Origin: Candidatus Latescibacterota bacterium
Lineage (GTDB): Bacteria; Latescibacterota; UBA2968
Assembly (NCBI GenBank): GCA_038279365.1
Contig: JAYODI010000027.1
Span: forward strand, 1 to 35,920
Length of the DNA stretch: 35,920 nucleotides
Reading direction: 5' to 3'
Made by a program: the position numbers and the translations under genes. Below, piece after piece: positions 4,864-29,663 of this stretch; position 1 is the first letter of the stretch; every line of letters begins with the position of its first letter. Under the pieces are notes generated by a model. That model was not told the origin of the DNA and made no database searches. It saw only the letters and a program-made list of their open reading frames with translations.

Positions 4864-6606
4864 TCACAACGTAAACGATTGACCATTCACATCCAAACCA
4901 TCACCGCTTGCAACCACAGAGGGTGCCTTCTCACCAATCTGAAACACCCACCAAATAACCGATGCATTCCAATCCACTTCGGCACACAATGTCAACTGTC
5001 CACGCGACCCGGGCAAACGGTCTACTTGTGCATCTGACAACTTAGCTTGTGGCGAAGACACCCACAATGTGACATCGGGAAAATAAACCTGCGCCCAACC
5101 ATCAGCCACCCACCATGCCGCATCGGGGTGACCATGCCAATAATAGTTTAACCGATCAATTTGTTGGCCCACAAGGTAATCGGCCACCACCACCAAATCA
5201 TTCCCACGCAACCAAACCGTTCTATTCACAACATCCAAAGCCAAATCATTTGCATAACACGCCGTTAAATCCACATCCATCCGACAAACATCACCCACCA
5301 ACGTGTCGCGTCTAACCTGCCGTGCAGATAGTTTATTCACCTGAGCCTGCCCATTAATCACAGGGGCATTGTGCGCCCCAACACCCAGCGTAAATTCGCG
5401 CTCGGTTTTCTTCATATACTGCTGATACCCAGGATCATCAATCAACCACTTTCCACGTGAACCAATCAGCAAGGTACCCGTATCTTTTTGCAAATGCCCC
5501 ATCGGTGAATTGCTCACCGACATGGCAACTGCACAATCTTCGCTTTCCCACCCACTTCGCAGCACAGTTGTATAATGGCCATCCAGCACACCCGCTTTGG
5601 GTGCATCCACAGCCCACCCACCCACCACACCATGCAACACACCCAACGCATCAGCGCGCATCCAATCTCTGCGACACTTTCCCAACAACCATGCTGCACG
5701 TGCATCTTGTGTCAACGCATAGAGTTTGGCATGTGCCGCAAGGTGATACGGCATCTCTTTGGGCTCCACATCGCCAATCTCTGCAACATTGGCCACATCA
5801 CCTGGTGCCCCCAATGCCACCGACTCATCCAACAAATCGCCAAACCGAGAATGATCCAAAATCGGTTTTCGATCACGCTCATCCATCGCCTGCAACCAAT
5901 GCACCACAAAATCCATAATATACCCATCATACCCCACACCCTCCGAATGCCCCACTTGGCGCAAATCTAAAATCGCGCCCATCACCGCATGTAACCGCTG
6001 ATCCAAAACGGAAGCGGCCTCATGTTTGATCGCATGAGCAGCCAGTGCAATGCCCACCGTACCAATTAATGGAATATTATGCAACACACTATGTGGCTCT
6101 TCCAGAGCCAAAATATCATTCTTAGAAGCAAAACGCCCGTGGTGTTCATCTGAATATTTCAGTGCATCATCCACAATACGTGCAAATGCACCTTCAATGT
6201 GTGTGCGTAGCCCATCGCCCAACCAATCCCACTGGGTATACGCCAGCCACAACAGGCGCGCACAATGCCCCAAACTCAAATCGGGCCGTTCATATTGCCG
6301 ATAACACGGCCACTGTGCCAACCCTTCAATATCTCGCTTGACCAAACTCTGGGCATCCAAATCATCAAACCAAGTACCCGCCCACCCCAAGCTGTTCACC
6401 CGCTCCTCAAAATCCCACAACACCCAAATTGACCAGGGATAAATGGCAATGCCCGGAACAGGCATATTGGGCACAATCATTTTTCGCAAAGGCAACGGAT
6501 AAGCCACCTTTCGGCGAATCCGATAATAATCGGCAATCAAATGGGTTTGTGGTTTGTGCCAACTGGCACGCCGTTGTATTTCTTGCTCAATTTCATTTCT
6601 GTTCAT
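4864..6606 (-). CDS. Heparinase II/III-like domain protein
   Basis: 'EGVGYDGY', 'LRSGW', 'GHLQKDTG', 'LIDDPGYQQY', 'AHNAPVING' typical of the Hepar_II_III C-terminal domain; GGAGGTG SD. Confidence 0.75.
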   Translation of the reverse strand: MNRNEIEQEIQRRASWHKPQTHLIADYYRIRRKVAYPLPLRKMIVPNMPVPGIAIYPWSIWVLWDFEERVNSLGWAGTWFDDLDAQSLVKRDIEGLAQWPCYRQYERPDLSLGHCARLLWLAYTQWDWLGDGLRTHIEGAFARIVDDALKYSDEHHGRFASKNDILALEEPHSVLHNIPLIGTVGIALAAHAIKHEAASVLDQRLHAVMGAILDLRQVGHSEGVGYDGYIMDFVVHWLQAMDERDRKPILDHSRFGDLLDESVALGAPGDVANVAEIGDVEPKEMPYHLAAHAKLYALTQDARAAWLLGKCRRDWMRADALGVLHGVVGGWAVDAPKAGVLDGHYTTVLRSGWESEDCAVAMSVSNSPMGHLQKDTGTLLIGSRGKWLIDDPGYQQYMKKTEREFTLGVGAHNAPVINGQAQVNKLSARQVRRDTLVGDVCRMDVDLTACYANDLALDVVNRTVWLRGNDLVVVADYLVGQQIDRLNYYWHGHPDAAWWVADGWAQVYFPDVTLWVSSPQAKLSDAQVDRLPGSRGQLTLCAEVDWNASVIWWVFQIGEKAPSVVASGDGLDVNGQSFTL

Positions 6607-6627
6607 CTCAACACCTCCCCAAACCTG

Positions 6628-7677
6628 TCACTGTTCATCCGCAGAAGGACCAAACCCCCGAGCCTGTTGACGGCGGCTTCGTGCCAATGCACGCAAATCA
6701 ACAGCTTCGTCCAATTCATCCACAATTTCATGACCCAAAATTTCTTCCAAAACATCTTCTAAAGCAATCACCCCCGACAAGCCACCAAACTCATCAATGA
6801 CCATAAAGATGTGCTCTTTTTTTTCTAAAAACAAGCGCAACACCCGATCCAATGGCAAGGTGTCCAACACAAAATCTACGGGCCTCATAAGCTGCATCAA
6901 ATCAACTTGCAACCGTCCCTCACTGATGGCCAACAAAATATCTCGACGCAATACAATACCCACCACATCTTCAGGACTCTCATCTGTAATAGGAATACGA
7001 CTAAATGTGGGAATGCCCACCGTTTTTTGTATGTCGCTAATCGAAAGATATGCACTCAAAGAAAACACCACCATGCGGGGTGTCATCACATCTTTCACAA
7101 ATTTATCTTTGAGTGTTAATACATTTTGAATAATCCCACTTTCATCTTGCCCAACATTGCCCGACTGCAACCCCAAACGCGCCATTGCCTTAATTTCTTC
7201 ACCTGAAACCTGATGTTCAACACGACCACTCGAAATCACCCGTGTCACAAATTGGCACAACCAAACCAATGGCGCCAAGCCCCAAATAAGCCATTGCAAT
7301 GGCCGTGCAATCCAAAGTGCCAATTCTTTGGCATAAACAACCCCAGCCGTTTTGGGAATAATTTCTGAAAACACAAGAACTGCCAACGTAAACACAACAG
7401 AAAAATACCCCAAAGCCTCAGCCCCCAAAACATCTGCGGCTGCTGCACCTGCCATAGCGGCACCAACTGTATGTGCGATGGTGTTCAACGACAAAATGGC
7501 CGCCAACGGCGCATCCACATCTTGCCGAAATTTTTTTAACAACTTGCCAGATATACTCCCAGACTGAGCCAAGTTTTCTACTTGGCTCATAGGTAAAGAA
7601 TACAACACGGCCTCAAGCAACGAACAAATAAAAGAAAAACCAATCGCAAAGCTCATTGCCAAAATCAACTCGGTCAT
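6628..7677 (-). CDS. CNNM (DUF21) + CBS-pair membrane protein (hemolysin/CorB-like)
   Basis: 'SFICSLLEAVL', 'AILSLNTIAHTVGA', 'FSEIIPKT', 'VMTPR', 'FSRIP', 'DEFGG..GVIALEDVLEEILG'. Start uncertain (7677 chosen). Confidence 0.9.
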   Translation of the reverse strand: MTELILAMSFAIGFSFICSLLEAVLYSLPMSQVENLAQSGSISGKLLKKFRQDVDAPLAAILSLNTIAHTVGAAMAGAAAADVLGAEALGYFSVVFTLAVLVFSEIIPKTAGVVYAKELALWIARPLQWLIWGLAPLVWLCQFVTRVISSGRVEHQVSGEEIKAMARLGLQSGNVGQDESGIIQNVLTLKDKFVKDVMTPRMVVFSLSAYLSISDIQKTVGIPTFSRIPITDESPEDVVGIVLRRDILLAISEGRLQVDLMQLMRPVDFVLDTLPLDRVLRLFLEKKEHIFMVIDEFGGLSGVIALEDVLEEILGHEIVDELDEAVDLRALARSRRQQARGFGPSADEQ

Positions 7678-20226: not shown

Positions 20227-20775
20227 TTAATTTTGAGACTTTGGCGCCACAATAATAAAAATGTTGCGCCCTTCGTCACGAGCAGGTGTTTCTATTTGAC
20301 CCACCTCTTGCAAATCTGTTTCAACACGCTTTAACAAATCGCGGCCCATATCGCGATGTGCGTTTTCACGGCCACGAAACTCAACGGCAATGCGCACTTT
20401 GTGACGCTGGGTTAAGAATTTTTCGGCGTGCCTCATTTTAAACTGATAGTCATGGTCGCTAATGCGCACACGCATCCGAATTTCTTTGAGTTGCGAGGTG
20501 TGCTGCCGCCCTTTTTTGGCTTTTTTGCTTTGCTCATACTGATATTTGCCATAGTCCATAATACGGCAAACAGGGGGCCGCCCATTCGGTGCAACTTCTA
20601 CAAGATCCAATTCGGCGGCTTCTGCCATTTCTATGGCTTTAGACGTTTCAACAACGCCAAGTTGCTCACCTTGTTGATCGATAAGCCGAATTTGAGGAAT
20701 GCGAATTTGGCGGTTGATACGTGGTCCCATTTCCCGCCGAGGAGTACTGGTATTACCTCTTGAACCTCTATTGAT
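20227..20775 (-). CDS. infC: Translation initiation factor IF-3 (probable AUC start at 20775)
   Basis: 'RINRQIRIPQIRLID', 'DLVEVAP', 'PPVCRIMDYGKY', 'FRGRE'; GGAGGTG lies 5 nt before an in-frame ATC. Confidence 0.96.
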   Translation of the reverse strand: MNRGSRGNTSTPRREMGPRINRQIRIPQIRLIDQQGEQLGVVETSKAIEMAEAAELDLVEVAPNGRPPVCRIMDYGKYQYEQSKKAKKGRQHTSQLKEIRMRVRISDHDYQFKMRHAEKFLTQRHKVRIAVEFRGRENAHRDMGRDLLKRVETDLQEVGQIETPARDEGRNIFIIVAPKSQN

Positions 20776-20808: not shown

Positions 20809-22752
20809 CTAAATGTGTGGCGTAATAAGGGATAGTTGTTTGTTTTCGACTTCACCTTGAATTCGGGAAATCAAATCAGTTACACGCAAAGCACCCAAAT
20901 CGCCTTCTCCGTGTCGGCGCACCGACACAGTGGCGCTCTCCACTTCCTTACCGCCCACAATCAACATATAGGGCACTTTTTGTACTTCTGCTTCTCGAAT
21001 CTTATAGCCTAATTTTGCGTCTTGATCATCGACTTCGACTCGAATGCCTGCTGCTTTTAAAAGACCAGCCACTTCTTTGGCATAATCGACATAAGGGTCA
21101 GACACTGGCAAGATGGCCACTTGAACAGGGGCCAACCAGACGGGGAAATTACCCGCATAATGCTCGATCAAAACACCAAAAAAGCGTTCCATAGACCCTA
21201 ACAAAGCACGATGCACCATATAGGGGCGATGGTATTTCCCATCTTGTCCGACAAAACTCAAATCAAAACGCTCGGGCAAGTTAAAATCAAACTGAATGGT
21301 TGAACATTGCCACTCTCGGCCTAAAGCATCTTTAATTTTGACATCAATTTTAGGGCCATAAAACGCACCGCCACCGTCATCGACACCATAAGACAAATTT
21401 TGCGCTTCAACAGCTTCGGTCAAAGCGGCAGTGGCCATATCCCAATCTTGTGGATCACCCACATATTTATCAGGACGTGTTGAAATATCAATTTGAAAAT
21501 CTTCAAAACCAAAAGACCGCAAAATAAACAATGTAAAGTCAATTACTTGTTTAATTTCGTGATCCACCTGATCGGGGCGACAAAAGATATGTGCATCATC
21601 TTGCGTAAACCCACGCACACGCATCAAACCGTGCAAAACCCCCGCGCGTTCATAGCGATAAACCGTGCCCATTTCGGCCCATCGAAAAGGCAAATCGCGA
21701 TAACTGCGCAAACTGCTCTTATAAATCATACTGTGAAACGGACAATTCATGGGTTTGGCAAAATATTCTTGCCCATCCACGTCCATCGAAGAATACATAT
21801 TCTCCCGATAGAAATCCAAATGCCCACTTGTTTCCCACAGTGTAGATCGGCCAATATGAGGCGAGCCAACAATATCATAATCACCTTGATAGTGTGTGCG
21901 ACGCCAAAAATCTTCTATTTCTGCCCGAATCCGCATGCCCTTGGGATGCCACAACACCAGCCCAGGACCAACATTTTCGTTTACAGAAAAAAGATCCAAC
22001 TGCGTACCTAATGTGCGATGGTCACGCCGTTTGGCTTCTTCGATCAAGTCTAAGTAGGCTTGTAGTTCTTTTTTGTCGGGAAAAGAGATGCCATAGATGC
22101 GTTGCAACATCTTATTCTTTTCATCACCGCGCCAATAGGCACCCGAAGAACTCAACAACTTGATGGACTTGATACGCCCCGTAGACGGCATATGTGGCCC
22201 ACGACATAAATCGAACCACTTATCGGCATTTTTGTAAATGCTGACCGTTTCATCTTCGGCAATGGCGTCTAAAAGCTCCAACTTATATGACTCGCCCAAG
22301 TCGCCAAACCTTTTGGCCGCTTCATCACGTGAGACTTCTTCACGAACAAAAGGTTGATCTTCATTGGCAATTTCCAACATACGCCCTTCAATTTTTTCTA
22401 ACTCTTCGGGCGTAAAGGGGCGTTCAACATCAAAATCGTAATAAAACCCATTTTCAATGGGAGGACCAATGGTCACTTTGGCACCGGGAAACAAATCTTG
22501 TACTGCTTGTGCCATCACATGCGCGGTACTGTGCCAATACACTTCTTTGCCATCGTCGCTGGAAAAGGTCAAAATTTCCAAAGCGACATCATCTTGGATG
22601 GCATAATTTAAATCGACAGGTTTGCCATTCACTTTACCTGCCAGTGCGGCACGTGCCAAACCCGTGCCAATAGACTCGGCAATTTGGAGCACCGTGGTGC
22701 CAGCATCGACTTCTTTTTGTGATCCGTCGGGCAGTGTAATTTTAATGGACAT
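20809..22752 (-). CDS. thrS: Threonine--tRNA ligase
   Basis: TGS domain 'IKITLPDGS', editing 'HSTAH', 'DLCRGPH', 'RDHRTLG', 'KPMNCP', 'GAFYGPKID', 'HRALLGSMERF'. Confidence 0.99.
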   Translation of the reverse strand: MSIKITLPDGSQKEVDAGTTVLQIAESIGTGLARAALAGKVNGKPVDLNYAIQDDVALEILTFSSDDGKEVYWHSTAHVMAQAVQDLFPGAKVTIGPPIENGFYYDFDVERPFTPEELEKIEGRMLEIANEDQPFVREEVSRDEAAKRFGDLGESYKLELLDAIAEDETVSIYKNADKWFDLCRGPHMPSTGRIKSIKLLSSSGAYWRGDEKNKMLQRIYGISFPDKKELQAYLDLIEEAKRRDHRTLGTQLDLFSVNENVGPGLVLWHPKGMRIRAEIEDFWRRTHYQGDYDIVGSPHIGRSTLWETSGHLDFYRENMYSSMDVDGQEYFAKPMNCPFHSMIYKSSLRSYRDLPFRWAEMGTVYRYERAGVLHGLMRVRGFTQDDAHIFCRPDQVDHEIKQVIDFTLFILRSFGFEDFQIDISTRPDKYVGDPQDWDMATAALTEAVEAQNLSYGVDDGGGAFYGPKIDVKIKDALGREWQCSTIQFDFNLPERFDLSFVGQDGKYHRPYMVHRALLGSMERFFGVLIEHYAGNFPVWLAPVQVAILPVSDPYVDYAKEVAGLLKAAGIRVEVDDQDAKLGYKIREAEVQKVPYMLIVGGKEVESATVSVRRHGEGDLGALRVTDLISRIQGEVENKQLSLITPHI

Positions 22753-22761
22753 AAAAGCAAA

Positions 22762-22785
22762 AACGCGCAAATACGAATGCGCGCT
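22762..22785 (-). promoter_or_regulatory. thrS operator-like hairpin mimicking the tRNA-Thr anticodon arm
   Basis: mRNA AGCGCGCA-UUCGUAUU-UGCGCGUU, CGU in the loop, ending about 10 nt before the thrS AUG. Confidence 0.65.
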
Positions 22786-22990: not shown

Positions 22991-23773
22991 TTAAGCAGAT
23001 AACACATAATAAGACTCTCGTGGTAAAGGAATGGCCTGCATCTGCAAGTGTAAATCATTGGCCAATTGTTCAACAACGCCATCGTAATGCGCGACCATAC
23101 CCTTGTTGTAACCACCAATAGATTGAGAAGGAAAAGAAACCACAATATGTGGCACCCGAAGCGCTTTCAAAATGGCCAAACTGGCTCCTTTTTCCTGTTG
23201 TTCCAAACAAGGCAATGCCTTAAATAAAAAAACCACGTCTGCGTTCCAATTGGGCACAGACACCAACAAATCGCTACAAACAGAAATGCCATTAAATTTC
23301 ATATTTTCAAAGAACTTACCAATACAATTTGCCAATCCCATATCAATATCACAGGCCATATATGCATCAATGGCCCCCATCCAGGGCAATGTAAAGGGAT
23401 TCAGACCACAAGCCAAATCCATCACCCGTTTGGGTTGCCCAGTAACAGACCAAATGGCATCAAAAACGGTTTCCAGATCATCAACACGTTCTGCCGTAGA
23501 AACATGCGTGCGCAATATTTGCTCGCATATCGGTTTGGGGTCTTGGTCATCTACCTGCTCAACCAACGCCAAAATCTGATCCGCATTCACCTGCCCCACA
23601 TAAGCGCCATAAACCTGATGTAACTTCCGTTTGGCCGCTTTGGTCGCCACCTTGAGAGATGAATTTTGCGCCAATGCCCACTGTGCCATGCGCCCCAGTG
23701 TTTCATCACACAAATCGCGATATTTTCGGCTATGCCTCAATTGCGCAATAATTTTGGCTTCGTTCTCTGACAT
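22991..23773 (-). CDS. ArmA/Rmt/Sgm (FmrO) family 16S rRNA (guanine-1405-N7)-methyltransferase homolog
   Basis: 'KRKLHQVYGAY', 'HVSTAER', SAM-binding 'DLACGLNP', 'DID', 'FKALPCLEQQ', 'VVSFPSQSIGG...GM...Y'. Confidence 0.88.
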   Translation of the reverse strand: MSENEAKIIAQLRHSRKYRDLCDETLGRMAQWALAQNSSLKVATKAAKRKLHQVYGAYVGQVNADQILALVEQVDDQDPKPICEQILRTHVSTAERVDDLETVFDAIWSVTGQPKRVMDLACGLNPFTLPWMGAIDAYMACDIDMGLANCIGKFFENMKFNGISVCSDLLVSVPNWNADVVFLFKALPCLEQQEKGASLAILKALRVPHIVVSFPSQSIGGYNKGMVAHYDGVVEQLANDLHLQMQAIPLPRESYYVLSA

Positions 23774-23775
23774 TT

Positions 23776-24879
23776 TTACAACCCCAGAGACCGATTTTCG
23801 GTGCTTTCCAACCTCTGACGACTCAAAATAGACAATTGCGCCATCATTCTGGCATAAAACCGCACGTTGTGAATGGTGGCCAACCGAAAAGCCAATGTGT
23901 CGTTAATTTTAAACAGATGGTGCAAATAGGCGCGGGAATAGTTTTGACAACACAAACAATCACAAGTTGGATCGACTGGTTCCGAATCGCGCCCATGCCG
24001 TTCGTCGTCTACATAAAGATACCGATAAAAATCGGCATCTAAATTCACACGATCAGGGGCATCGTGAAACACATATAATCGCTTTTGTCTGGCATCTCGT
24101 GTGGGAAGCGTACAATCGAAGGTGTCATATCCCAAACGAAAAGCACGCACCACATTTTCTAACTTGCCAATTCCCAACGCATGTTTGGGCACATCATTGG
24201 GCAACAATTCGGCCACCCAAGCAACCGCCTCCACCAAAGCCCCATCATCAGCAATGGGCCAGCCACCAAATCCAAACCCATCAAAACCAATTTCAAGCAT
24301 TTGGGCCACACACTGCTTGCGCAAATCGAAATCCATGCCCCCTTGTATCACACCAAACAACTTTGTTCCATCTCGATTCCTTCTGCGATCAAACTCATCA
24401 CGGCATTGTTGGGCCCACGCCACCGTATGTTTCACACTTAACTGTTGTTCTTCCACACTTGCATTGGGGTGCGTGCAATGATCGAGACAAAACATCACAT
24501 CGGCCCCTATATGAAACTGTTTTTGGATGCACTTTTCTGGTGTCAATGTTTGTTTTTTGCCATTATCCAACCGATAAACAAAACCTTTTTTAGAAATAGA
24601 ACCCGACTTTGGGTTCTCTGCAATCAACGAAAAGACCTGAAAACCACCCGAATCAGACATCACAGGTTTGTGCCACCCCATAAATGCATGAATTCCCCCC
24701 ATTTGTTTCACCACTGTCGTACCAGGATGAGAAGAAAGGTGTAGGGCATTCACCATCATCGCCTCTATGCCACAGGCAGCCACATCACTGGCATCTAAGG
24801 CGCGAATCACACCACGGGTGCCATCAGGTAAAAATGCGGGACATTGCAATGTTCCATGTGCGGTTTGGATCGTTTTCAT
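23776..24879 (-). CDS. tgt: tRNA-guanine transglycosylase family protein (atypical pocket)
   Basis: 'DSGGFQVFSL', 'LDHCT', 'GVIQGG', 'ALGIG', 'FDCTLPTRDAR', Zn site 'CDCLCC...IHN'. Confidence 0.88.
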   Translation of the reverse strand: MKTIQTAHGTLQCPAFLPDGTRGVIRALDASDVAACGIEAMMVNALHLSSHPGTTVVKQMGGIHAFMGWHKPVMSDSGGFQVFSLIAENPKSGSISKKGFVYRLDNGKKQTLTPEKCIQKQFHIGADVMFCLDHCTHPNASVEEQQLSVKHTVAWAQQCRDEFDRRRNRDGTKLFGVIQGGMDFDLRKQCVAQMLEIGFDGFGFGGWPIADDGALVEAVAWVAELLPNDVPKHALGIGKLENVVRAFRLGYDTFDCTLPTRDARQKRLYVFHDAPDRVNLDADFYRYLYVDDERHGRDSEPVDPTCDCLCCQNYSRAYLHHLFKINDTLAFRLATIHNVRFYARMMAQLSILSRQRLESTENRSLGL

Positions 24880-25890
24880 TTACGCTTCATCCAAGCCCAA
24901 ACCAGTCAAATCGGCCATGCGCCCCTCTTGCTCGGCTTCGTATAATCGCCAAATCACACGCAACCCTTGCAAACTTCCTTGCCCATCGGTTAAGGGCTGT
25001 TGGCCAGTTTCAATACAATCTAAAAAATGAGCCATTTCATTTTCGGTGTGTTTGCCCGACTCAGACTCCAACAGCAGTGTTTCTTCACCCCGATGAATAT
25101 GTATCAATTTGCTGCCTGTAATATCGGCCTCTATTAACCCTTCTGTGCAATGCGCATGAATGGCATATCGCAAACGAGACCCTCGAGCGCCCCACGTGCC
25201 AAAATGATACCCCAACCGCCCCTGCTCAAATTCAATGGTCACATTGCTGGTACCTTCACGTTCCATCCACGGTGTGCCCAAATTGGTGCCCATATGAATC
25301 CCTTTAACAGGGCGCCCCAAAAACCACAACAACAAGTCAACATAATGGCACCCATGGCTAAACAATTGCCCGCCGCCCAAACGCTCTTTGCTTGATGCCC
25401 AGTGATCTGAGGGATAACGCGTTAGCTGCTCCGTCCAAATAGACACCTGAAACACATCGCCATATTTTTTTTCATCCAATAATTCCTTCATCTTCACCAC
25501 CAAAGGATGAAACCGCATACAATAAGCAATCATTAACACGCGTTTTTTGGCATTGGCCAACTGAATCAATTCTTTGCAAGCCACTTCATAATTGGCCATA
25601 GGCTTTTCCAACAACACATGTTTGCCCGCTTCCAAACATGCTTGTGCAACCGAAAAATGCAAATGATGTGGCAACACCAACAAAACGGCCTCCACGTCAT
25701 CCAAAACATCATGAAAATCTGTGGCAACTTTAATACCCGGAAATTGCACAGCCACCGATTCGGCCCTTTCAAGCACCACATCGACAGCAGCAACCAACTC
25801 GACCCGATCACTTAGGGTTTGAAAGCGCCGCATGTGTGTGCCTCCCATACCCCCACATCCCACAATTGCCAATTTGACCTTATTACTCAT
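24880..25890 (-). CDS. Gfo/Idh/MocA family NAD(P)-dependent oxidoreductase
   Basis: 'AIVGCGGMG', 'LPHHLH', 'AGKHVLLEKPMA', 'GGGQLFSHGCHYVD'. Confidence 0.92.
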   Translation of the reverse strand: MSNKVKLAIVGCGGMGGTHMRRFQTLSDRVELVAAVDVVLERAESVAVQFPGIKVATDFHDVLDDVEAVLLVLPHHLHFSVAQACLEAGKHVLLEKPMANYEVACKELIQLANAKKRVLMIAYCMRFHPLVVKMKELLDEKKYGDVFQVSIWTEQLTRYPSDHWASSKERLGGGQLFSHGCHYVDLLLWFLGRPVKGIHMGTNLGTPWMEREGTSNVTIEFEQGRLGYHFGTWGARGSRLRYAIHAHCTEGLIEADITGSKLIHIHRGEETLLLESESGKHTENEMAHFLDCIETGQQPLTDGQGSLQGLRVIWRLYEAEQEGRMADLTGLGLDEA

Positions 25891-26000
25891 AAAAAACCCC
25901 TTATGGTTTTTTAAAAAGTCCCATAGATGAACAATGAGACCGTTTTAGACAGATAGACCTGAAAAAGCCAATGAAACTACGACACAAACACAGGCATTTT

Positions 26001-26651
26001 TTACGGCAAATGCAACACCTTGTGGATCCGACACGACAACCGCCAGGTGGGATGACGCGATAAAATTTCCAATGCCTTATGCGTGTATTCTGGGCTGCTG
26101 GACTCGGGTTGTAAAAAAACCACATCGGCACGATCTTCGTCTACCATATCTTCTCGAAACATCTTGCCCACAACATACTTTAATTCGGTAATATACGTCA
26201 ACCCATCAGCAATCTCTTTGCGCTTGGGTGATACCGTCCAATGTTCAATCAAATTATACAGCTCAGGATCGGGGTCCACGGTGCCATTGGTCTCTATATG
26301 CAAATGATATCCCGCCTCATGCAATGCCTCACACAAAGGTGTGATATTTTGCCCCAACGGCTCCCCCCCCGTTAAACACACCCACTGTGCCGAATGGCGT
26401 TGAACTTCTGCAACAACCTGTGCAATGGCCATTTCTTCATAGGTGTCAAACTCTGTATCGCAAAAAAAGCAACGCAAATTGCACTTAGACAACCGCACAA
26501 ATGTGGTCGGTTGCCCCACGCGCAGGCCTTCTCCTTCAAGCGAATAAAAAATCTCATTAACCTGCAAAACAGACCCATCTTCACGCCAAATAGGCAAACG
26601 GTCTTTGGGTGCTGGGGGAATCAGTTGCAAAATATTAAAATCGTCTGACAA
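26001..26651 (-). CDS. queE: 7-carboxy-7-deazaguanine synthase-like radical SAM enzyme
   Basis: 'VNEIFYSLEGEG', 'FVRLSKCNLRCFFCDT', 'LTGGEP', 'IETNG', 'VSPK', 'FLQP', 'WRLS..HK'; TTG start with AGGAG SD. Confidence 0.88.
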   Translation of the reverse strand: MSDDFNILQLIPPAPKDRLPIWREDGSVLQVNEIFYSLEGEGLRVGQPTTFVRLSKCNLRCFFCDTEFDTYEEMAIAQVVAEVQRHSAQWVCLTGGEPLGQNITPLCEALHEAGYHLHIETNGTVDPDPELYNLIEHWTVSPKRKEIADGLTYITELKYVVGKMFREDMVDEDRADVVFLQPESSSPEYTHKALEILSRHPTWRLSCRIHKVLHLP

Positions 26652-26899: not shown

Positions 26900-28582
26900 A
26901 TGTACGCTTACGAAGCCATCTTACACAACCAAACAGAACGTGTCAAAGCGGCTTATTCACGCCAAATCTTAGACACACAACACCCCGCATTTGGCGCATT
27001 TCTCTCAGAGCGCAGTGGTGCCCATCCCAATGCCGATCACACGTGCAATGCCTCAGACTTGGCCAGTGCGTGTTATGTTCTTTTAGCCGAAGGATCAACG
27101 CTTGAAAACAATGATGAATTGTTTGAACGCATCCAAAAATCCATTGCCTTTCAAAGAAAGTGGCAACGATCCACAGGCCTCATCGACCTCGTTTCGGTCA
27201 ACTGGGAATCGCCACCCGACACCGGTTTTGTCGTACAATTGTTCTCGCCCATAGTATCTATTGCCCGTCAAAGAGCACAAGCAGGCAACGACCAAGCACA
27301 AGAAATTGCAAATACATTGGGTGAATTTGTACGCAGTGCCGCCAATGGCATGATTGACCGAGGTTTCCATACCCCCAACCACCGTTGGGTTGTTTGCTCC
27401 GGCTTGTCACAAGCCATGGTCTTATATCCCGATCTGCCTGCCCGTGACTATGTCAATCGCATTTTGGCAGAAACCATTGACATCAATACCGACGGTGAAT
27501 TCACCGAACGATCAACGGGTGTTTACAATGCCGTATGTGATCGCTCACTGCGTTTTATGGCCGACAGCCTCAACAAGCCCGAACTGCTCGACGCCGTGCG
27601 CAAAAACCTCGACATTATGGCCCATCTTTTTCACGAAGATGGCACCGTGGTCACCTCCATTTCCAACCGCCAAGACCGTGGGTTGCGCGTCGTACCCGTA
27701 GGCATTGCCGATTCGTTTTACGACATGGCCCAACGCGATCAAAACGGTGTTTGGGCACAAGTGGCCGACAACTTGGCCGCCCAAGGCACCGACCAAGCAC
27801 ACAGCCCGTGGCTGATTCAACCTTTTATGCAAAATCCCAATTACCGCAACGACACATTGGTGCGTCACCCCTTGCCCAACAACTACGCACGTCACTACCC
27901 CATTTCGGGTCTTTGGCGCGTCAAACGCAACAAACTATCGGCCACGGCGGCCACAAACAACCGCACTGCTTTTTCAGTACGCTATGGCAACATCAATTTA
28001 CGTGCCGTCAAATATTCGGGCACCTATATGAACACTTCCAATTTGCAAGCAGACTACATGGAAGCCATTAAAGGCGGTATTCGCCTCACACAAAAAGGCG
28101 CAAACCATCGCACACCTGGTTATGAACTGCCACTCAATAAGGAAGTTCCTCTTGGACAATTTGGCACCGTGCGTAACACACGTGAGCGTTGGACATGTCC
28201 CGAAATAGACCTCACATTGGATATTGTTGAAGTCGAAAAAGGGTTTGATCTCCACTACACCACACAGGGTGGACTGGATCGTGTGCCCATTGAAATAGAA
28301 TGTACGTTTGAAGGCCCAGGCGAATGGGAAACCCAAGACAATGTTTTACAAGTCGACAACGGGCAAAGTGCCATTCTCAAATCGGGTTACGGCACCTTTC
28401 ACTCTGGCACCGAAGGCATTACCATAGGTCCAGGTGCGGGCATTCACAGACATTGGGACATGCGCAACTCTGAACCCGATAAAGAAAGCTTTCGCGTACT
28501 CATTACGCTACAAACGCCCGTTGATCACACCCTCAAAATTCGCTATGGCACGTGGTCACTCTCAGCTCAACAACTGATCTGA
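26900..28582 (+). CDS. Conserved hypothetical protein, probable alpha/alpha-toroid plus beta domain (lyase/heparinase-like architecture)
   Basis: 560-aa ORF with AAGGAG SD; 'SPPDTGF', 'GFHTPNHRWV', 'DGEFTERSTGVYN', 'SNRQD' look like conserved motifs. Fold is inferred. Confidence 0.6.
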   Translation: MYAYEAILHNQTERVKAAYSRQILDTQHPAFGAFLSERSGAHPNADHTCNASDLASACYVLLAEGSTLENNDELFERIQKSIAFQRKWQRSTGLIDLVSVNWESPPDTGFVVQLFSPIVSIARQRAQAGNDQAQEIANTLGEFVRSAANGMIDRGFHTPNHRWVVCSGLSQAMVLYPDLPARDYVNRILAETIDINTDGEFTERSTGVYNAVCDRSLRFMADSLNKPELLDAVRKNLDIMAHLFHEDGTVVTSISNRQDRGLRVVPVGIADSFYDMAQRDQNGVWAQVADNLAAQGTDQAHSPWLIQPFMQNPNYRNDTLVRHPLPNNYARHYPISGLWRVKRNKLSATAATNNRTAFSVRYGNINLRAVKYSGTYMNTSNLQADYMEAIKGGIRLTQKGANHRTPGYELPLNKEVPLGQFGTVRNTRERWTCPEIDLTLDIVEVEKGFDLHYTTQGGLDRVPIEIECTFEGPGEWETQDNVLQVDNGQSAILKSGYGTFHSGTEGITIGPGAGIHRHWDMRNSEPDKESFRVLITLQTPVDHTLKIRYGTWSLSAQQLI

Positions 28583-28601: not shown

Positions 28602-28862
28602 GTAATTGCCCGATCAACCGCGCCGGAATAAATTCCAGCGCTACATAAGAAAAGTCCTACGGACTAAAACCGTAGAACCACACCGAATGCTTAAACATGA
28701 TTGTGGTTCATTTTAACGAAGGTAATTGCCCCATCAACCGCACCGGAATAAATGAGCTTCGCTGAACTTGCGTTTCCAGCGCTACATAAGAAAAGTCCTA
28801 CGGACTAAAACCGTAGAACCACACCGAATGCTTAAACATGATTGTGGTTCATTTTAACGAAG
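28602..28862. repeat. Tandem duplication (120 nt + 141 nt) containing a GTAG-type REP-like palindrome
   Basis: 28602-28721 and 28722-28862 are near-identical; copy 2 has a 21-nt insert; minus strand reads GTAGCGCTGGAATTTATTCCGGCGC. Confidence 0.9.
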
Positions 28863-28871
28863 GAGTATGTG

Positions 28872-29663
28872 ATGCATCCATTCAACACACTCAATGTACC
28901 CGAAAACAAAGTGGGCATCCACTGGTTTGGGCAATCTACATTTGCCCTCAAACACCCCAATGGCACGGTTGTGCAAATTGATCCGTATTATCCACGAGAA
29001 AGACCGCCCGAAAGGTTCATGCATGCCGAACCACCTTTAGATGAAAGCACACTTAAAACCGACTTTGTGTTGCTCACCCATAACCATGGGGATCACACCT
29101 GCATCGAATCACTTTTGCGCATTCACCAAGCTTTTCCCCAATGTCGCTACATTGGCCCGCCCGAAAGTGTGGCCAATATGATCGAAAACGGCATTCCGGA
29201 ATCACTCATCAAAGAAATTACCGCACAAGACGTGGCCACACTTGGCCCAATGACCGCACACGTCGTTTGGGCAAAACCGCCACAAGGTGCGCCCGATGAC
29301 GGCATCAAACCACCCGATGTACAACACCTCGGTTTTGTGATTGAAGTGGGCACGGTCCGCGTTTACATCTCAGGCGACCCCATCAACACCTTCTCCAAAT
29401 ACGAACAACTCATTCGCCCCATTGCCGACTTGCAACCCGACATCGGTTTTTTGACCAACCACCCCACCGAAGGTGAATTCCCTTTTTTTGATGGCTCAGT
29501 TGATATGGCCCTTAAACTTGGCCTCAGTGCCGTGGTGCCCACACACTATCAATGTTTTGTAAAACGCAACTACGACCCACAAGAATGGGCCGCTCATTTT
29601 CCCGAAGACGGCCCAGAAACCATTATCATTCCCTACAATGAAGCCATTGTCTACCCTGCTTGA
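28872..29663 (+). CDS. Metallo-beta-lactamase-fold hydrolase (UlaG-like)
   Basis: 'HWFGQSTF', 'IDPY', 'THNHGDH', 'YISGD', 'VPTHY'; AAGGAG SD. Confidence 0.88.
   Translation: MHPFNTLNVPENKVGIHWFGQSTFALKHPNGTVVQIDPYYPRERPPERFMHAEPPLDESTLKTDFVLLTHNHGDHTCIESLLRIHQAFPQCRYIGPPESVANMIENGIPESLIKEITAQDVATLGPMTAHVVWAKPPQGAPDDGIKPPDVQHLGFVIEVGTVRVYISGDPINTFSKYEQLIRPIADLQPDIGFLTNHPTEGEFPFFDGSVDMALKLGLSAVVPTHYQCFVKRNYDPQEWAAHFPEDGPETIIIPYNEAIVYPA

Follow-up and report, generated by a model that had tools for sequence, protein, structure and literature searches.

A tRNA-guanine transglycosylase paralogue and an Arm/Rmt-type methyltransferase form a widespread gene pair that probably acts on the ribosomal decoding site

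What does a gene of the Arm/Rmt (FmrO) family do when it sits on a chromosome, 2 nt behind a paralogue of tRNA-guanine transglycosylase (TGT)? The Arm/Rmt enzymes that have been characterised bind to the 30S subunit, and the atom that they methylate is N7 of G1405, in helix 44 of 16S rRNA. The locus that raises the question belongs to a Candidatus Latescibacterota bacterium (GenBank assembly GCA_038279365.1, contig JAYODI010000027.1, positions 1 to 35,920; this stretch of 35,920 nt is called the window below). Between positions 22,991 and 26,651 it carries four open reading frames (ORFs), encoding a QueE-like enzyme, an oxidoreductase with GFO/IDH/MocA domains (Pfam/NCBIfam), the TGT paralogue, here called TGT2, and the methyltransferase, here called Rmt. 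An earlier note, made from the letters alone, had read the four genes as a candidate cassette for an undescribed guanine modification. The arrangement that it described was confirmed from the ORF list and a terminator scan. All four genes are co-oriented, the oxidoreductase stop (ending at 24880) abuts the TGT2 ATG (starting at 24879), and the TGT2 stop ends at 23776, which leaves a 2-nt spacer before the methyltransferase ATG at 23773. The 110-nt gap between queE and the oxidoreductase gene (25891-26000) contains no terminator-like site on the minus strand. The comparative evidence set out below indicates that TGT2 and Rmt are probably a widespread, unannotated two-enzyme module modifying the ribosomal decoding site, and that queE and the oxidoreductase gene neighbour the pair by synteny only.

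The window genome (6.03 Mb, 199 contigs, 98.5% complete) has a canonical tgt in addition to TGT2. The canonical gene, on contig C26, scores 544 bits on PF01702, compared to 328 bits for TGT2, and the two proteins are 35% identical. TGT2 also passes the TIGR00430 equivalog model (327.6 vs a cut-off of 306.75). The methyltransferase scores 155 bits on FmrO PF07091 and 223 bits on the generic Rmt model of NCBIfam (NF000466), below its cut-off of 250. The genome further contains queD, queA and two copies each of queC and queF, the queF copies lying side by side on contig C127.

In the window's order, an Rmt-like gene is present in 12 of 41 genomes and TGT2 in exactly the same 12, at 52-86% identity to the window protein; the other 29 genomes have canonical tgt only, at 34-39% identity. 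A locus search with the window Rmt as single query gave no match, and an alignment of the 12 Rmt proteins was used instead. With one genome per species, we kept the best 80 of at least 573 relatives. In 57 of these 80 Rmt-first loci TGT2 is co-oriented with Rmt at a distance of no more than 150 bp, and in 55 of the 57 the order was TGT2 then Rmt. In 7 more loci it is co-oriented and up to 1 kb away, in 3 it lies within 4 kb, and in 13 it is missing from the locus. The TGT2 proteins of these loci are 44-83% identical to that of the window. Among the genomes of the 13 loci lacking TGT2, one carries it at the end of another contig, 11 have tgt of canonical type only, and the last, a 0.9-Mb genome, has no tgt that we could find; Rmt without TGT2 occurs in the genomes of 11 of the 80 loci. 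The records with pair loci are titled Latescibacterota, Gemmatimonadota, Nitrospirota, Armatimonadota, Acidobacteriota/Aminicenantes, Hydrogenedentes, Chloroflexota, Thermomicrobiota, Alphaproteobacteria, Planctomycetota, Spirochaetota, Eisenbacteria, Hebobacteria and Oscillospiraceae. One of the carriers, Dictyobacter aurantiacus S27 (locus L112), is in culture.

We then have an even sample of 301 Chloroflexota genomes, in which TGT2-type hits (at least 344 bits) are separate from canonical ones (at most 248 bits). TGT2 was detected in 62 genomes, and an Rmt-like gene in all 62. Note that these counts take in genomes flagged as unpublished, namely G084 among the 62 and G216, G219, G312 and G321 among the others. 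By coordinates the two genes are adjacent in 56 of the 62 carriers, on different contigs in four, and 6-7 kb apart in two. As exceptions, both genes are decayed in one genome, Rmt is a fragment with a stop in one, and TGT2 is a fragment at a contig end in one. On contig C209 of G183 (Chloroflexota) TGT2 and the Rmt-like gene both have in-frame stops, and the pair there seems to decay together. The corresponding Alphaproteobacteria sample had carriers in 2 of 221 genomes, too few for a co-occurrence test. A scan starting from TGT2 returned mostly canonical tgt and at least nine clear TGT2 loci with the Trp-Pro motif described below, in eight of which Rmt lies directly downstream. The adjacency of TGT2 and Rmt is far beyond chance. 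Among the cases examined, a TGT2 of the 44-86% identity class was never found without an FmrO gene in its genome. Our argument rests on the spread over phyla and on this asymmetry: Rmt occurs alone, TGT2 of this class does not.

The two proteins also occur as fusions. Among the proteins of more than 644 aa related to TGT2 in public protein clusters (best 120 listed), the two best matches are TGT+FmrO, P0001 (649 aa; TGT 2-366, Rmt 388-644 by NCBIfam) and P0002 (663 aa; TGT 5-360, Rmt 381-637). The next two join an RsmI-type TP_methylase to TGT: P0003 (713 aa; RsmI 5-280, TGT 339-703) and P0004 (710 aa; RsmI 5-282, TGT 339-705). The RsmI domain is above cut-off in both, and the four members of the P0003 cluster come from separate assemblies. 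A search starting from Rmt gave four long FmrO proteins, every one of them TGT+FmrO (P0001, P0002, P0124 and P0125). A GGWP motif is present in six of six fusion clusters (four TGT+FmrO, two RsmI+TGT). The other listed long matches, P0005-P0120, are of a different kind, with 114 of 116 being PF05430+TGT proteins of canonical type (33-38% identity). We take this PF05430 domain to be of the MnmC type, acting on tRNA U34 (wobble); if that is right, these proteins would be the tRNA-side counterpart of the rRNA-side fusions of TGT2. A 768-aa ORF in the unpublished genome G084 is a fifth TGT+FmrO fusion, a single case that the argument does not need. In G189, a 901-aa ORF has FmrO at its C-terminus and 640 residues without family, and may be a spurious high-G+C extension. 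The long TGT2 open frames in G073 and G333 were rejected as overlapping-frame artefacts. A 704-aa ORF in L144 has a TGT domain only.

A survey of neighbouring genes, by ORF clustering over the 80 Rmt-first loci and then by tblastn, pointed in the direction of rRNA. The commonest neighbour after Rmt and TGT2 themselves is RsmI, the 16S C1402 2'-O-methyltransferase (TIGR00096, 192.7 vs 167.9), which is found 300 bp or less from the module in 35 of the 67 TGT2-bearing loci, compared to 1 of the 13 loci that lack TGT2. It is followed by an RsmF-like gene (11 of 67 vs 0 of 13), for which the best model is the 16S m5C1407 enzyme RsmF (272.7, cut-off 588) and in which the RsmF N-terminal domain is present. 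The RsmI beside TGT2 is the only RsmI found in four genomes (one under cut-off); Anaerolineaceae have a second copy. In one Oscillospiraceae locus the order is RsmH (MraW family, 386 bits)-TGT2-FmrO-RsmI. As named by the NCBIfam models, the targets of RsmH, RsmI, Rmt and RsmF all fall within 16S nucleotides 1402-1407, and all four enzymes act on the assembled 30S subunit. This context points to helix 44 of 16S rRNA, in preference to tRNA G34, as the likely site of action of TGT2. Note that RsmI (TIGR00096) was not found in the 98.5% complete window genome, though it is the commonest partner elsewhere.

Eight loci of Anaerolineae/Chloroflexota (L073, L085, L095, L097, L098, L104, L106 and L107) have an extended form of the module, (RsmI)-TGT2-Rmt-Rmt'-RsmF-like, where Rmt' is a second, divergent FmrO paralogue (26-32% identical to the window Rmt; 155 bits on the generic Rmt model). 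A further RsmI copy, more canonical and sharing 39-40% identity with the first, lies at a distance of 2.4-3 kb in L073, L085 and L098.

How does TGT2 compare with the TGTs of known function? The AlphaFold model of TGT2, built from 55 sequences, has a predicted local distance difference test score (pLDDT) of 94.5, and its best PDB matches are structures of Z. mobilis TGT (template modelling score, TM, 0.85). Residues were assigned by alignment to Z. mobilis TGT, with conservation scored over the 55 TGT2 sequences. Equivalents of D102, D156, C158, Q203, G230, D280, R286 and R289 are retained (D76, D133, C135, Q179, G206, D255, R261 and R264 in TGT2); four of these (D255, D76, D133 and G206) never vary, and Q179 is kept in 90% or more of the sequences. 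For D102, D156, Q203 and G230 we assume their usual roles, base recognition in the case of Asp156, Gln203 and Gly230. The Zn ligands C318, C320, C323 and H349 correspond to C306, C308, C311 and H337 of TGT2, and the dimer-interface aromatics W326, Y330 and H333 to Y314, Y318 and H321. The peptide switch is replaced: all 55 sequences have Trp for L231 (Trp207) and Pro for A232 (Pro208). Only 4 of 55 keep Glu at the E235 position, V233 is represented by Leu, Ile or Val, 53 of 55 have Leu for M260, and the E157 position varies. TGT2 moreover carries an insertion of 10-13 aa after residue ~270.

The relevant passages of a study on Z. mobilis TGT describe D280 as the nucleophile and the Leu231/Ala232 peptide as flipping during exchange (PMC3660597). 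There, a water molecule bridges the A232 amide to N7 of the leaving guanine; after the flip the carbonyl points to the aminomethyl group of preQ1 as it enters, and Glu235 is its partner (PMC3660597). Because a proline at position 232 has no amide, the TGT2 pocket would offer position 7 only a carbonyl and the tryptophan. Such a pocket should favour a cationic or hydrogen-bond-donating 7-substituent, for example the methylated imidazolium of 7-methylguanine (m7G) or the preQ1 amine, over plain guanine.

In a maximum-likelihood tree, 63 TGT2-type rows (59 TGT2 and 4 fusion proteins) are split from 20 canonical-type rows (16 canonical tgt of carrier or sister genomes and 4 PF05430 fusions) by a single branch with an SH-like approximate likelihood ratio (SH-aLRT) support of 100. 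A tree of 100 rows gave the same split, with 30 canonical rows forming one side (SH-aLRT 99). Canonical tgt accompanies TGT2 in every carrier checked except G001 (90% complete). TGT2 is an old, distinct branch of the TGT family. The earlier note had called the TGT atypical and the TGT-Rmt pair a candidate undescribed guanine-modification system, and both statements held: the second, canonical tgt and the queC, queD, queF and queA genes that it proposed to look for are all in the genome, the pair recurs across genomes and as fusions, and TGT2 forms its own clade. An adjacency restricted to this genome or its close relatives, which the note had allowed for, is not what we see, with 57 of 80 loci under about 12 phylum labels.

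The partner protein has the full architecture of its family. The window Rmt matches Sgm (11-258), RmtC (7-259) and RmtB over the full length, with PF07091 covering 15-241, and the Rmt profile scores 219 bits against Sgm, the N-terminal 30S-binding part included. It is 29-35% identical to the plasmid-encoded RmtB1, RmtD2, RmtF1, RmtC, RmtG and ArmA, and its relatives score 155-226 bits on the generic Rmt model. Parts of a preprint on RmtC name K20, R50, H54 and M245 as critical for binding/activity, and K236 and R241 for activity (bioRxiv 10.1101/712810). At the K20 position (window K17) 54 of 55 family sequences have K or R, and at the R50 position (K48) all 55 have a basic residue; the equivalents of H54 (H52) and M245 (M226) are retained in 55 of 55. 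The K236 position is basic in 35 of 55 and the R241 position in 48 of 55. Prediction of a TGT2+Rmt complex gave a score of 0.00, under the mark, which is evidence neither way.

The pair has also reached clinical plasmids. In 72,556 plasmid records we found full-length TGT2-type genes (45.7-47.4% identity) on 12, from K. pneumoniae, E. hormaechei and P. rettgeri, and 5'-truncated TGT2 on four more; the other 58 hits are canonical tgt (at most 37.4% identity). Rmt hits occur on 1595 plasmid records, most of them without TGT2. The annotated gene orders are rsmH-tgt2-rmtG, tgt2-metallophosphoesterase-rmtB2 and tgt2-rmtD2, on three segments bounded by IS91-family and IS26 elements, and the tgt2 genes beside rmtG, rmtD2 and rmtB2 are intact with a GGWPL motif. 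The metallophosphoesterase gene lies between the tgt2-type gene and rmtB2 on P. rettgeri plasmid p12100-NDM (L221, locus 6155-6964); on the other two plasmids inspected, tgt2 and rmt are directly adjacent. The statement of the earlier note that Rmt genes are not normally coupled to tgt was therefore wrong. Because its members are annotated 'tRNA guanosine(34) transglycosylase Tgt', the TGT2 family has been hidden in plain sight, on clinical plasmids included. A 'tRNA ribosyltransferase' ORF beside rmtD was reportedly described in 2008. In the section concerned, a genome paper of 2014 records a 'putative tRNA ribosyltransferase CDS' immediately upstream of rmtG and leaves it uninterpreted (PMC3904158). 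In the passages concerned, one review regards m7G1405 only as a resistance mark of actinomycetes or plasmids (2026; PMC13602947), and another mentions no TGT paralogue but DpdA (2016; PMC5699537). Beyond the rmtG sentence, we found no link of TGT to m7G1405, FmrO or rRNA in the full-text literature outside subscription journals.

From these features we infer RNA substrate, nucleotide, order of steps, incoming base and chemistry as follows. The functional unit would be two translationally coupled genes, TGT2 upstream and Rmt downstream, whose products form one pathway on helix 44 (1401-1407) of 16S rRNA. Rmt would methylate N7 of G1405 in the assembled small subunit, and TGT2 would next exchange a base in the same decoding-centre stretch. 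We put the probability of this reading, with methylation at G1405 and base exchange by TGT2 in helix 44, at roughly 0.55. The most likely chemistry would be that the N7-methylated, cationic and labile guanine is itself the leaving base and is replaced by another base. In such a methylation-primed exchange TGT2 would be the first rRNA guanine transglycosylase, expelling 7-methylguanine and installing, for example, a 7-deazaguanine. We rate this more specific version as less probable than not; it fits three observations: TGT2 depends on Rmt, the N7-facing amide is lost and m7G is labile.

Several observations weigh against a shared pathway on helix 44. The evidence on the substrate is all comparative, and m7G as a substrate of a TGT is our proposal. 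TIGR00430, the equivalog model of the tRNA G34 enzyme Tgt, accepts TGT2, as would be compatible with a tRNA substrate. The co-occurrence counts overstate the evidence, because neighbouring genes are gained or lost in single events and related genomes are not independent, and the phylum labels are titles of metagenome-assembled genome (MAG) records that may be wrong in places. At the ninth of the TGT2-first loci (MAG G581), TGT2 stands apart from the FmrO gene, which reads in two frames. Arm/Rmt enzymes such as ArmA and RmtB alone suffice for resistance. The window Rmt itself stays under the cut-off of the generic Rmt model and has Gln217 and Tyr222 at the positions of RmtC K236 and R241; its activity may thus differ from that of a typical enzyme, which weakens the reading for this genome. 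Finally, five TGTs (L149-L153, from genomes G582-G586 of 0.8-1.4 Mb) are placed on the TGT2 side by the tree and have retained the proline, in the motifs GGWPV (twice), GGFPI and GARPI (twice). In none of the five genomes did we find a second TGT-family gene or an FmrO gene, and none of these TGTs has rRNA-enzyme neighbours. The proline by itself is consequently no proof that an enzyme works on rRNA, and the link to Rmt does not hold throughout the wider clade. Judged by these sequences the proline is older than, or independent of, the Rmt partnership, and is compatible with a protein being the cell's only TGT. In pairwise alignment the L150 and L151 proteins appear to be without the Zn cysteines.

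Could TGT2 simply be a second tRNA-guanine transglycosylase, serving another set of tRNAs, another position or another base, and be co-regulated with the rRNA enzymes without sharing a substrate with them? The TIGR00430 score is in its favour, as are the TGT-like fold, catalytic residues, Zn site and dimer aromatics, the presence of thrS and infC after the pair in the window, and the small genomes, where the TGT2-side relative is the sole TGT and a tRNA role is simplest. However, every carrier checked but G001 already has a canonical tgt, and co-occurrence with Rmt is strict (12 of 12 and 62 of 62). TGT2 is fused to the 30S-specific FmrO and RsmI and canonical TGTs to PF05430, and the peptide switch for exchange of guanine to preQ1 is lost in TGT2. 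We consider this explanation unlikely, while giving it more weight than any of the following. Rmt and TGT2 could instead be writer and eraser of one mark, TGT2 returning m7G1405 to guanine so that the methylation could be undone or would last only briefly, for example in the course of 30S assembly or in order to limit a fitness cost. That m7G is a good leaving group is established chemistry, TGT2 depends on Rmt and not the reverse, and in 35 of the 62 Chloroflexota carriers no QueC scores over the cut-off, so that a 7-deazaguanine donor is not always made by the cell. Guanine is moreover described as a natural substrate of TGT in base exchange, in the passages cited above (PMC3660597). But a constitutive operon or a fusion of writer and eraser would be futile. 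In addition, intact TGT2 is kept beside rmtG, rmtD2 and rmtB2, which confer high-level resistance that an efficient eraser would cancel. We regard an eraser as quite improbable. Least probable of all appears a non-catalytic TGT2 that docks or chaperones Rmt, as QTRT2 does for the eukaryotic TGT. The fusions and the tight coupling do suggest physical association, but Rmt enzymes work alone, and the equivalents of D280, D102, D156 and the Zn ligands vary little or not at all across the 55 sequences. Inactive TGT subunits lose just those residues, according to the same source (PMC3660597).

The remaining alternative is the four-gene cassette of the earlier note, in which a new 7-substituted guanine would be made and inserted by QueE, the oxidoreductase, TGT and Rmt acting jointly. 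The genes are co-oriented and tightly spaced without a terminator, and queE stands upstream of the pair in 11 of 11 pair-bearing relatives, with TGT2 then Rmt between queE and thrS in each. Metatranscriptome contigs (four runs, four studies) fall on all four genes, and one of them (24836-25099, no differences) spans the oxidoreductase/TGT2 junction; these contigs are short, and as DNA carry-over is possible they are a weak hint of expression, the uncovered stretches carrying no meaning. Against the cassette, the queE-like gene is the sole copy found in the window genome, and queE is single-copy in 40 of the 41 genomes of the order, including all 28 of two genera without the pair. Four pair-less relatives were inspected. 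One has queE-oxidoreductase-thrS-infC, two have queE-thrS-infC, and the fourth has queE-oxidoreductase-infC, where thrS was not found. Since queE-(oxidoreductase)-thrS-infC persists without the pair, the pair is an insertion or deletion within a housekeeping backbone, to which queE and the oxidoreductase gene belong; the latter accompanies the pair in only 3 of 11 pair-bearing relatives and is absent from 8. The QueE-like protein has the radical-SAM CxxxCxxC signature (CNLRCFFC). It falls under every QueE cut-off (best score 103 of 300; full-length match 90 of 240) and is the only QueE candidate in a genome that has queC, queD, queF, tgt and queA. We did not find queE beside the pair outside the queE-thrS synteny group (9 of the 80 loci); other preQ0-pathway genes were not searched by name. 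Rfam models detected no riboswitch, preQ1 included, in the window or in 10 loci with the pair; the only matches were two tRNAs in L041. The cassette is thus largely refuted and to us very improbable. The suspicion voiced in the earlier note that the oxidoreductase is a passenger proved sound, the gene being present only in some genera and also beside queE in pair-less relatives. As a whole, the interpretation of that note is partly supported, for the pair and not for the cassette.

A 7-deazaguanine is one candidate for the base that would come in on the preferred reading, base exchange in helix 44. QueC over cut-off is more frequent in Chloroflexota with TGT2 (27 of 62) than in those without (23 of 239), a figure that also speaks for the cassette. 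Each of the five carriers checked (three to four of them complete chromosomes) has TGT2 as well as a canonical tgt; two of them have a clear QueC and one a partial QueC, and in the other two none was found. Salvage is possible, because canonical tgt occurs in QueC-less genomes. QueC is enriched in carriers yet absent from 35 of 62.

The coordinates of the locus are collected in Table 1. The terminator-like hairpin and the promoter-like site may form a leader or attenuator of thrS.

Table 1. Genes and signals at the TGT2-Rmt locus, in window coordinates
Feature	Position	Strand	Remarks
Arm/Rmt (FmrO) methyltransferase gene	22991-23773	-	ORF, 260 aa; core part 2 of the putative module
TGT2 (tRNA-guanine transglycosylase paralogue)	23776-24879	-	ORF, 367 aa; core part 1 of the putative module
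GFO/IDH/MocA oxidoreductase	24880-25890	-	ORF, 336 aa; passenger outside the module
QueE-like radical-SAM enzyme	26001-26651	-	ORF, 216 aa, TTG start; housekeeping neighbour
thrS (threonyl-tRNA synthetase)	20809-22770	-	conserved backbone downstream of the TGT2-Rmt pair
infC	20227-20730		after thrS, same backbone
Promoter-like site	22910-22882	-	between the Rmt gene and thrS
Terminator-like hairpin	22785-22762	-	immediately before the thrS start, after the Rmt gene

Upstream of queE, the window has a 560-aa ORF (26900-28582, plus strand) without a Pfam or NCBIfam family, found at 67-86% identity in several relatives, and beside it a gene for an MBL-fold hydrolase (28842-29663, plus strand), an arrangement likewise seen in several relatives. 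Nine further DNA runs (X2-X10, studies P1-P6) hold half or more of the sampled words of 22991-26651; they are labelled as estuary, marsh, salt marsh or marine metagenomes.

To our knowledge, base exchange is so far described only for tRNA (Tgt, ArcTGT) and DNA (DpdA). If TGT2 and Rmt do act together on helix 44, base exchange would extend to ribosomal RNA, as a new kind of modification at the decoding centre. The Arm/Rmt resistance methyltransferases would then be one half of an ancient, widespread housekeeping pathway, which would explain the origin of their genes. Were the methylation-primed exchange also true, many environmental bacteria would have in their decoding site a base so far unseen in rRNA, and the clinical rmtD, rmtG and rmtB2 would be torn-off halves of that pathway.

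Four known systems can be set beside the pair. With bacterial Tgt (Z. mobilis, E. coli; PDB 1ozm, 1q2r) TGT2 shares the fold (31-33% identity) and the catalytic and Zn residues. Bacterial Tgt differs in having Leu231-Ala232 and Glu235, in lacking the 10-13 aa insertion and in its clade, and it is usually encoded with queA and yajC, whereas the partners of TGT2 are rRNA enzymes. The Arm/Rmt/Sgm methyltransferases (RmtB 3frh, Sgm 3lcu, RmtC 6pqb/8ghu) have the full-length architecture and the K20/R50/H54/M245 equivalents in common with the window Rmt. In contrast to them, the window gene is chromosomal, lies in a housekeeping context, has a window-typical G+C content and is tied to a TGT paralogue. 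The tgt-like genes of clinical plasmids are of the same TGT2 type and in the same tgt2-then-rmt order as the window pair. There the segment has been captured between insertion sequence (IS) elements, and the pertinent text reads it only as the 'genetic environment' of the resistance gene (PMC3904158). TGT2 is not DpdA: it scores 30.2 on NF041059 (cut-off 200), and its match to PDB 7ui4 (E 8.6e-6) covers only ~100 residues. DpdA nonetheless provides a precedent, since the new substrate of this tgt paralogue was predicted by gene clustering, as recounted in the review section on it (PMC5699537). The neighbours of DpdA are genes of DNA metabolism; those of TGT2 are rRNA enzymes.

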